DNA of 64,000 nt, taken from NCBI RefSeq assembly GCF_055900595.2, contig NZ_CM148325.1; one strand, 5' to 3'. Made by a program: the position numbers and the translations under genes. Under the pieces are notes generated by a model. It did not search any database and was not told where the DNA came from. It saw nothing but the letters and a program-made list of their open reading frames with translations. This document shows, in pieces, positions 26,331 through 27,759 of the stretch. The stretch's first letter is position 1. The number at the start of each line of letters is the position of its first letter.

Positions 26331-27368
26331 GTTCACAGATAAAACACTCTCCAGGAAACCCGGGGCGGTTCAGTCAGTATGAGCACGGGCATCTCTGTAT
26401 ACACCACCTATCTCACCGCGCAGGGCATCCCCCGACACCCGTACAGCATCTGCAATGGCGTTGTCCATCTGTCCTTTTGTGGCCGCATCACTATCCTTAA
26501 CACCATCTGAAACATTTATAATCCGGCGGGTTTCCGGTGCACCATCAACTGAAAATCCATATCCTGAAGGACCGGCCCCTACAGAAAGTACATTGCTTTC
26601 TCCATTCACCTGAGAGCCATACCCCAGAGCGACACTGTTGTCTGCATTAAAAACAGCTGTCTTATGTCCCACTGCCATGGATTTACCCGCATCCCAAATT
26701 ATTGCACCGGAACCAACAGCAAAGTTTTTTCCAGTAACATTAGTATCACCGTTAGCATTTCCATTTCTGTCAATCACACTTGCACTTTCAAGTGACTGAG
26801 TGCCATTATCAAGCCAGATAGTACCCGTCAATGGCTCAGAAAGTGTTTTATGAGCCAAAGCCTGAGATGAGAGCAGCAGGGCCACACTCACTGCCAGCGC
26901 GCTTTTCTTTAAAAAAGCATCACGTCTTTTAAGCATTCTGTTATTCTCCTGTATTATTACTTCACCAGCCAGAACGGTAGTGCGGAGCAAAAATACAGTG
27001 ATAAGAATCCTCTCTTATTAACTTAATAATGCCAGGAATATTATTGTGTATAATATGCGACCTCAATTTAAGCAGCAGAAAACGACTGGCATTAAAATCA
27101 TTAAATTATAAACATATACAACTTTGTAAAGGTGGTTATAATAAACCTGATTACTTTAACGTCTGTATACCTGCACTGCTGATATCACAAAACAATAAAA
27201 ATCCTGGTTAATATCTCTGATGATTGAATGAGAAATTCACGATGTCTGGTGAGAATTCTGTTCAAAACGAGGAATGCAGACGTACATGTGGCAGGCATGG
27301 ACTTCTACCAATTTAACTTTTTTCCTTCCTTGTATTTACACATTGCACATTTTGCGCTACAAAAATTT

Positions 27369-27455
27369 CACGTGGCACGCACCACGTGATCCGTAGAAAA
27401 GCCTCTTGTTACGAATTTCGTAAACCGCACGTCTGTCTGGTCGTGCGGATTTTTT
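27369..27455 (+). ncRNA. Candidate small RNA (5' stem-loop plus intrinsic terminator), speculative
   Basis: cacgtgg-cacgcac-cacgtg hairpin at 27369-27389, then ccgcacg-tctgtctggt-cgtgcgg + ATTTTTTA at 27425-27455; no ORF of 60 aa or more. Confidence 0.25.
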
Positions 27456-27649
27456 ATCCGTCAACTTCACATGAAACCCGCCAGAGCACTGTTTCCGGAT
27501 TCAGACATCAGGCATATTATCATCCACGATGTCGTGAACAAGATCACACTTTTGCAATTCCTTTATTGATCGAAAGCAGTTAATCACGGAAATTAATTAC
27601 CGGAGTGAAAGCATTACTGCATCGTAAATATCTACCATTTTTGACTACA

Positions 27650-27679
27650 CCCTCTGACAGAATTTTCAGAGGGTTTTTT
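27650..27679 (+). terminator. Intrinsic terminator
   Basis: ccctctga-cagaattt-tcagaggg followed by TTTTTT. Confidence 0.5.
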
Positions 27680-27759
27680 ATCAGTTTCACCATCCAACCC
27701 TGTACGCCAGAATGGTTTCACTGTCACTCAGTTCTGCTATTGCCTTTTTCATCTCCCTT

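Follow-up and report, generated by a model that had tools for sequence, protein, structure and literature searches.

Positions 27240-27700 of the 64,000-nucleotide window analysed here (the whole stretch of DNA taken from NCBI RefSeq assembly GCF_055900595.2, contig NZ_CM148325.1) were initially annotated as a candidate small RNA (sRNA) locus with two plus-strand intrinsic terminators. The 64-kb window is a genomic island of Escherichia coli, and this 461-bp region is probably a zone of convergent terminators from the right end of a decayed lambdoid prophage, lying between two truncated genes. The first is a ykgJ-like gene on the plus strand (ykgJ′) and the second a DUF4376 tail-fibre-assembly-like gene on the minus strand (DUF4376′). 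Three hairpins, named hairpin 1, T1 and T2 (Table 1), each have a transcription unit of their own strand upstream, which is ykgJ′ for T1 and T2 and the DUF4376 gene for hairpin 1. The region is largely ordinary, and an sRNA gene is without positive support.

The plus-strand stub encodes a peptide ending in KFTMSGENSVQNEECRRTCGRHGLLPI before the stop codon, and aligns with the last 27 residues of E. coli K-12 YkgJ at 52-59% identity depending on the allele (tblastn). At the same place in strain LR-31, the Prokaryotic Genome Annotation Pipeline (PGAP) reports a 'YkgJ family cysteine cluster protein' pseudogene. Because only residues ~82-109 are present, ykgJ′ is read as a remnant and not a gene: it has homology to YkgJ, is not full-length and lacks the N-terminal CxxCxxCC cluster of this cysteine-cluster family of putative metal chelators. 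A protein homologue search with an X-padded ykgJ′ query returned no candidates. The LR-31 stub holds a mosaic patch that moves its C-terminus closer to canonical YkgJ.

The minus-strand stub, whose product ends in REMKKAIAELSDSETILAYRVGW, was found by a six-frame phmmer search against 1.84 billion proteins, followed by inspection of the contigs encoding the matches. Most matches were spurious gene calls on the same DNA. Matches P0016 and P0017 led to prophage locus L011, the protein of which matches Pfam DUF4376; DUF4376′ was also reached via P0017. Window positions 27534-27766 share 89-91% DNA identity with the 3′-end and downstream flank of intact DUF4376 genes in three loci (L011, L013 and L014), in which a collagen-like tail-fibre gene is followed by the DUF4376 gene.

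The setting of these intact relatives places the region in a prophage. In strain NRZ14408 (L014), the homologue of window 26373-27766 is complete at 90% identity and comes after an intact lambdoid tail module of tail protein, Lom, tail fibre and DUF4376 genes. The homologous stretch is followed there by a gene that PGAP names 'immunoglobulin-binding protein'. In the window, the region lies upstream of an Eib-like adhesin gene, and the 830-bp intergenic region (IGR) of the window is found in prophages between an intact DUF4376 gene and an Eib-like gene. The gene order in strain ECCNB12-2 (L013) is gpJ, tail fibre, DUF4376, IGR, YadA-C-terminal protein and sigma-like helix-turn-helix (HTH) protein, the last of which (WP_000884153.1) is identical to that of the island. 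These contexts mark the island locus as a decayed prophage right end, cut within DUF4376 beside an IS66 fragment. Judging by these alignments, positions 27230-27766 as a whole are a decayed piece of such a right end.

Prophage relatives were compared across 49 IMG/VR loci encoding DUF4376 relatives, which were searched with K-12 YkgJ. An intact 109-aa ykgJ homologue, 83% identical to K-12 YkgJ, is present in L034 and L036, convergent with DUF4376 and ~180 bp apart from it. As in the window, only C-terminal parts of ykgJ are left in seven further loci (residues 77-109, 79-106 or 86-106), and the ykgJ copy of L038 is cut by the contig end. The remainder of ykgJ has been replaced in L044 by an Arc-like gene and a tailspike-like gene, and host potB/potA follow the intact ykgJ of L036. 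Because intact, remnant and replaced states of ykgJ are all seen, the position after the tail-fibre-assembly gene is a cargo-gene exchange spot at which ykgJ was repeatedly truncated.

The ~180-bp IGR of the ykgJ-intact prophages holds terminators on both strands. A ykgJ-sense terminator (ATGGGGGA..TCCCCCAT followed by CTTTTTG) abuts the DUF4376 stop codon, and a consensus scan for terminators confirms it for L036. In the late-operon sense, the scan called a hairpin (TTCCG..CGGAA followed by ATCTCATTTT) at L036 3996-4012, with the DUF4376 stop 109 nt before it and the ykgJ stop 40 nt beyond it. Another candidate, CATCC..GGATG followed by ATTTTT, lies directly beside the ykgJ stop and was read by eye, not called by the scan. 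In total, the scan of L036 gave 5 terminator-like sites, where 1.0 +/- 1.0 were expected. Related prophages repeatedly have an opposite-strand terminator close against the tail-fibre-assembly gene, with a sequence that varies: a hairpin with a T-run lies 13-23 nt from the end of the DUF4376 match in 31 of the 39 IMG/VR loci with enough flank, and these 31 comprise at least five unrelated hairpin sequences. The arrangement in the window is similar to these crossed terminators of L036-type prophages. The initial annotation had named, as the outcome that would speak against an sRNA locus, that the signals were the 3′ untranslated region of a gene. This outcome is essentially the one seen: they lie directly downstream of the truncated ykgJ-like gene, and a terminator on the same strand and at the same position ends intact ykgJ in related prophages.

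Within the window, T1, T2 and hairpin 1 have z-scores of -2.7 to -4.7 against shuffled sequences, and the consensus scan of 27200-27760 found 2 terminator-like sites where shuffles gave 0.3 +/- 0.6. T1 is additional to these two, its 10-nt loop being outside the rule of the scan. The three terminators are thus more than chance, and the two on the plus strand stand as initially annotated, with stable stems and U6 runs above the shuffle expectation. T1, a genuine second plus-strand terminator by prediction, has a GC-rich 7-bp stem and is positioned 109 nt past the ykgJ′ stop. The U-tract of T2 (UUUUUU-A) is directly 3′ of its stem, and only 7 nt separate T2 from the convergent DUF4376′ stop codon. 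The T2 hairpin is kept in three diverged alleles (ACCCTCTGA/TCAGAGGGT in the window; CCCCTCTGA/TCAGAGGGG in WCHEC4533 and L011), with one compensatory change from A-U to C-G at the base of the stem. Upstream of T2, a patch of 30-60 nt is highly diverged among alleles and contains a 26-nt indel. Conservation of structure across diverged homologues is seen for T2 alone, T1 and hairpin 1 being invariant and hence uninformative.

Hairpin 1, which had been taken as the 5′ stem of an sRNA, is scored by the scan as a terminator on the minus strand, and the same call was repeated in the prophage-context locus L014. Its minus-strand U-tract, AAUUUUUGU, is directly 3′ of the stem, and its left edge is 51 nt from the ykgJ′ stop. 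The TACAAA '-10 box' of the promoter that had been proposed for the sRNA is the complement of this minus-strand T-run (27358-27367). Because the scan calls hairpin 1 on the minus strand with a T-run complementing the '-10 box', the box and the 5′ stem together are better read as the terminator of the tail-fibre operon. Hairpin 1 would then be an intrinsic terminator for minus-strand (phage late-operon/tail-fibre) transcription.

Table 1. Features of the region and its immediate neighbours, in window coordinates.
Feature	Position	Strand	Basis and description
YadA-anchor trimeric autotransporter (Eib-like) adhesin, 5′ fragment	26370..26937	-	Open reading frame (ORF) list; PGAP 'YadA-like family protein' in homologous loci; Pfam YadA_anchor, E 2.9e-16
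ykgJ-like C-terminal remnant (ykgJ′), without start codon or N-terminal part	27230..27316	+	Last 27 codons, equivalent to residues 82-109 plus stop
TTTACA-17-TACAAA promoter-like pair	27335-27340, 27358-27363	+	Sequence; matches 5/6 and 4/6, weak
Hairpin 1 with T-run (27358-27367 read on the minus strand)	27358..27389	-	Consensus scan: 9 pairs, tail AATTTTTGTA; -14.2 kcal/mol
Hairpin 1 palindrome, TCACGTGG/CCACGTGA	27368-27389	+	8 bp; -12.7 kcal/mol, z -4.6
GTG ORF, 65 aa	27386-27583	+	Mechanical ORF list; passes straight through T1
Small palindrome/hairpin between hairpin 1 and T1, UUACGAAUUUCGUAA	27409..27423	+	Fold -3.6 kcal/mol, weak
T1 intrinsic terminator	27425..27456	+	Stem CCGCACG/CGTGCGG 27425-27431/27442-27448, 10-nt loop, A-UUUUUU-A 27449-27456; -14.3 kcal/mol
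ATG ORF, 32 codons	27471..27569	+	ORF list; without Shine-Dalgarno sequence
T2 intrinsic terminator	27649..27680	+	9-bp stem ACCCTCUGA/UCAGAGGGU 27649-27674, U6 27675-27680; -14.7 kcal/mol, z -4.7
DUF4376 tail-fibre-assembly-like C-terminal remnant (DUF4376′)	27688..27766	-	Last ~26 codons
IS66-family TnpA remnant	27767..27946	-	NCBIfam IS66_access_TnpA, E 1.2e-15; PGAP 'transposase, frameshifted, incomplete' in homologous loci

The history of the locus was probably as follows. In the ancestral phage, a tail-fibre operon on the minus strand of the window would have ended with the DUF4376 gene, and a ykgJ-like cargo gene on the plus strand would have pointed toward it from the other side. Such cargo genes are termed 'morons', extra genes that are unneeded for phage growth. 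Each transcription unit would have stopped at an intrinsic terminator near the stop codon of the other gene. A cassette with the YadA-type (Eib-like) adhesin gene and the sigma-like HTH gene would later have replaced ykgJ save for its last ~27 codons, and in the island version a break associated with IS66 would have removed the DUF4376 gene save for its last ~26 codons. T1 and T2 would once have ended the ykgJ transcript; today they would at most stop stray plus-strand transcription from the AT-rich promoter region of the adhesin gene.

Several points weigh against this reconstruction. The activity of the terminators is a prediction from their sequence. The searched loci and databases showed no phage in which the T1 module (27317-27533) follows an intact ykgJ, so the assignment of T1 to ykgJ comes from position and strand. 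Made up of hairpin 1, the small palindrome and T1, this ~215-bp module lacks relatives beyond its own IGR family. A 20-mer of hairpin 1 gave a single chance match, in Streptomyces, among genome-representative contigs. A 22-mer of T1 matched 27 metagenome contigs, all in the same two contexts (island and prophage), with no copy outside E. coli-type contigs. The phage database held no DNA or protein match to the region, and a low-stringency search for the T1 module in all fetched loci returned nothing new.

The pattern of variation also bears against a pure relic. Alleles aligned from genomes and metagenomes consist of two-haplotype patches (27083-27185, 27271-27296 and 27616-27675) around a nearly invariant core. 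The mean pairwise difference in the two largest patches is 12-18%, and the pattern suggests a mosaic arising from recombination between diverged phage alleles. From hairpin 1 to T1 (27368-27461), all 94 columns are identical across the 22 distinct island alleles, a mild excess of conservation not expected of a pure relic. Variable columns in the neighbouring remnants number 1/86 to 10/182, the lower figure being that of the nonfunctional DUF4376 stub, which is nearly as invariant; other neighbours range from 8/354 to 10/145. We regard the invariance as at most a weak hint of constraint. Across 25 distinct sequences, 27369-27476 shows a single change, 27431 G>A, found in one prophage allele, where it opens only the innermost base pair of T1.

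The hairpin-1-to-T1 segment is central to the sRNA interpretation, under which a trans-acting RNA of ~86 nt (27370-27456, plus strand) would begin with a 5′ hairpin, continue through a single-stranded A/U-rich stretch and a small hairpin, and end in T1. It would derive from the weak TTTACA/TACAAA promoter or from processing of a longer plus-strand transcript, and a second RNA might end at T2. We consider such an RNA unlikely, and think it improbable that 27368-27461 is a lineage-restricted prophage/island sRNA from a decayed ykgJ 3′ region that acts on the Eib-like adhesin mRNA or on host targets. Its predicted fold, one of the checks that the initial annotation had proposed, is consistent with an sRNA, giving three hairpins and a U6 tail with a minimum free energy of -31.7 kcal/mol (z -2.8). 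The absence of variation amid mosaic flanks also favours it, as does the fact that ykgJ-adjacent and rearranged IGRs are known birthplaces of sRNAs, such as EcsR2 (PMC4350180). A stronger promoter-like site, TATACA-16-TATAAT at 27115-27142, could feed a precursor of ~310 nt. This site is the best sigma-70-like match nearby (plus strand, 10/12) and points into ykgJ′ and T1; in the diverged haplotype of patch 27083-27185, its TATAAT is kept and its -35 element is lost.

However, the promoter that had been proposed is at chance level. TACAAA lacks the conserved T at the last -10 position (-7 T), the consensus scan of 27200-27760 called no promoter, and the window has an equally good pair roughly every 1.9 kb of strand. 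An 84-bp deletion (27285-27368) between short GTGGCA repeats removes the end of ykgJ′, the promoter-like pair and the hairpin 1 T-run in L015, a prophage allele, and L092, a metagenome island allele, yet both keep the adhesin gene intact. The pair is probably not a promoter, its '-10 box' being the A-tract partner of the minus-strand terminator. A scan of window 20000-36000 with Rfam 15 (E <= 1), also suggested by the initial annotation, detected only the ALIL pseudoknot of an insertion sequence (IS) element, so that the candidate is without a family match. On the related loci, Rfam gave nothing beyond a sub-threshold hit for sok antitoxin RNA (RF01794; 51.1 bits, with the gathering threshold at 59; E 6e-9), at L036 1447-1605 (+) and L044 1451-1609 (+), upstream of the tail-fibre genes.

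Conservation gives the sRNA little further weight. With no variation in the segment, covariation cannot support the fold, and the near-invariance of the DUF4376 remnant indicates that conservation may reflect recent spread only. The whole module is missing from the related L011/L013-type adhesin loci; because these lack 27224-27533 entirely, the segment is not an obligatory part of the adhesin cassette. When the candidate RNA was paired with the 5′ region of the adhesin gene in RNAduplex, long loops dominated the output. The classification as an sRNA locus is thus not supported, with a chance-level promoter, a stem that is scored as a minus-strand terminator and no Rfam match. Relic terminators and A-tracts can mimic the 'promoter + hairpin + terminator' signature of an sRNA. 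Transcription of the T1 module, if it occurred, would add another case of an sRNA that arose in the 3′ region of a decayed gene.

The region could also act in cis to regulate the adhesin gene, when read on the minus strand. Hairpin 1 with its T-run would then insulate the Eib-like gene from late-operon read-through or attenuate that read-through, and the remainder would be a long regulatory upstream stretch with possible protein-binding sites, such as a motif at 27585-27608. In intact prophages, hairpin 1 is indeed a predicted minus-strand terminator between the tail-fibre and adhesin genes, and the motif is common to two otherwise unrelated IGR families, in which its distance from the DUF4376 stop is similar. 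This interpretation is compatible with a convergent terminator zone, overlapping with it rather than excluding it; as an account of the region, it seems doubtful to us. For eibG, 168 bp of upstream sequence are reported to be enough for expression from a plasmid (bioRxiv 10.64898/2025.12.25.695649), and the analogy would put the adhesin promoter at about 26938-27105, which is outside the region. The L011/L013-type loci have the same HTH gene and a related adhesin gene, but a quite different IGR (400-814 bp). Moreover, the 84-bp deletion takes the hairpin 1 T-run and leaves the adhesin ORF in place. We found no promoter or terminator mapping of these intergenic regions in the Eib literature.

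The motif itself is 24 nt long in the window (CACGGAAATTAATTACCGGAGTGA, plus strand) and occurs inverted in the otherwise unrelated tfa/ykgJ IGR of L036-type prophages, with a 24-26-nt consensus of CACGGAAA(AG)TTAATT(A)CCGG(A)AGTGA. Sites were located at L036 3982-4007 (+), L034 3801, L044 3981, L013 6661 (-) and L014 5696 (-), and the motif is present in 17 of the 49 IMG/VR loci. It lies ~95-110 nt past the DUF4376 stop in both IGR families, on opposite strands relative to the DUF4376 gene. A protein-binding site and a small inversion are both conceivable.

All of the elements that had been listed (the promoter-like pair, the palindrome, T1, T2 and the 32-codon ORF) were present where the initial annotation had placed them, and its reading of the stretch as ORF-poor is right, in that no real coding gene is present. 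Its remark that no ORF of 60 aa or more explains the signals needs a small correction, given the mechanical 65-aa GTG ORF that runs through T1. A small protein gene, either this ORF or the 32-codon ORF, is very unlikely. Both ORFs exist and have T2 downstream, but neither has a ribosome-binding site, and a 1-nt deletion (C at 27477) frameshifts both in NRZ14408-type alleles. A 1-nt indel further breaks the frame of the 32-codon ORF in the L011 homologue. The translated frames match no Pfam or NCBIfam family, and the only database matches are gene calls of high identity made on this very DNA, several of them with TGA read as W. Homologues of the 65-aa ORF, which spans T1, are limited to such spurious calls. 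The 32-codon ORF is thus present and without a ribosome-binding site, as had been described, and on these comparisons it is evidently non-coding.

Public protein entries P0001, P0002, P0004 and P0005 are 147-176 aa long and are translated across the non-coding stretch with TGA read as W; they are gene-calling artefacts that are able to mislead homology searches. P0012 was considered as a diverged homologue of the 32-aa ORF and was ruled out, as it represents an IS3-family insertion junction in another strain. In other strains, an IS3-family end at ~27490 (L010) and IS600 at ~27552 (L006; strain OkiPb01692) are inserted within the region, which shows that it tolerates disruption.

The 461-bp stretch is present in 370 of 5426 complete E. 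coli genomes, where it is chromosomal in all; there is also one plasmid copy, the single match in the plasmid database being the same island block. The island context accounts for ~350 of the 5426 genomes and the prophage context for 19, with island carriers making up about 7% of complete E. coli genomes. Examples of carriers are E. coli SMS-3-5 (NC_010498.1, around 3,271,800-3,272,800) and APEC O2-211. Extra 'places' of the core were reported in some genomes, and in ECCNB12-2 none was found within 40 kb of the island copy; the prophage copy of 27534-27766 in this strain (L013) may account for some of them. The host island is CP4-57-like and also carries AlpA, YagK/YfjJ and inovirus-Gp2-like genes. 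The gene order in nearly all copies is the YadA-like adhesin (minus strand, start at 26937), the region itself, the IS66 TnpA remnant, a transketolase remnant and an IS1 pseudogene.

The IS66 TnpA remnant, the sole NCBIfam match in six-frame translation, marks the breakpoint at which the prophage fragment was cut. A search for a tRNA or att-site relic found none. The transketolase stub (28135-28278, minus strand) lies beside the IS1 pseudogene in the window and in most other copies. Intact transketolase-family genes adjoin the IS66 remnant in the island alleles 20Ec-P-124, M21816 and AR13438 (L016 1-1132). The alleles with intact and stub transketolase genes look like successive decay stages of one island.

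The adhesin gene is itself split in the window. Its halves (24265-25062 and 26373-26937) are separated by a 1310-bp IS3-family element (25063-26372), the boundaries of which were taken from the homology break. This element contains orfA (25117-25443), orfB (25440-26330) and an ALIL frameshift pseudoknot (RF01497, 25398-25514, 121.5 bits), and it sits at the edge of a 99-bp tandem repeat in the adhesin gene (24833-25062; 2.3 copies, 98% matches). Homologous adhesins range from 369 to 522 aa, and L013 matches the repeat at several 99-bp offsets. Variation in repeat number therefore likely contributes to the differences in adhesin length. NCBIfam gave only generic YadA-type matches to the adhesin.

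Positions 23748-24203 (minus strand) encode a 151-aa protein with a sigma-70 region-4-like HTH (Pfam Sigma70_r4_2, E 2.4e-7), which always follows the adhesin gene, in prophage and island alike. This protein is a candidate dedicated regulator of the adhesin. The adhesin and HTH pair of this widespread island derives from the cargo position at a lambdoid prophage right end, which Eib-like genes also occupy.

Several known systems resemble parts of the locus. In predicted shape, the 27370-27456 RNA is similar to Hfq-type sRNAs, which have a 5′ hairpin, an A/U-rich linker and a Rho-independent terminator, but it differs from them in having no credible promoter, family match or covariation. By location, the closest described analogue is EcsR2, a 166-nt sRNA of the yagU-ykgJ IGR of E. 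coli K-12 (Raghavan et al. 2015, PMC4350180). EcsR2 likewise lies directly downstream of ykgJ in a lineage-restricted IGR, and from its published primer it is transcribed toward ykgJ (PMC4350180). Its strand is opposite to that of the RNA proposed initially, and its topology instead matches that of a hypothetical minus-strand RNA that would end at hairpin 1. In the K-12 IGR, one hairpin follows the ykgJ stop directly, and it looks bidirectional. Neither EcsR2 nor the K-12 region downstream of ykgJ resembles the window in sequence, the sole blastn match (word size 7) being 20/22 nt within ykgJ coding sequence.

Prophage loci of Eib and Eib-like genes share with the window the order of tail fibre, DUF4376, IGR, YadA-anchor adhesin and small HTH gene. 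The likeness comes from gene order, and the copy in the window differs in lying in a degenerate island, not a prophage, with an adhesin gene split by an IS element. Compared with the prophage right ends of L034, L036 and L044, the window has a longer IGR (371 bp versus ~180 bp), an extra terminator (T1) in its ~215-bp orphan module, stubs of ~26-27 codons as flanking genes, and hairpins unrelated in sequence to the L036 type. In both, ykgJ or its remnant converges with DUF4376, the cargo-strand terminator abuts the DUF4376 stop, and a late-operon-strand hairpin with a T-run lies elsewhere in the IGR.

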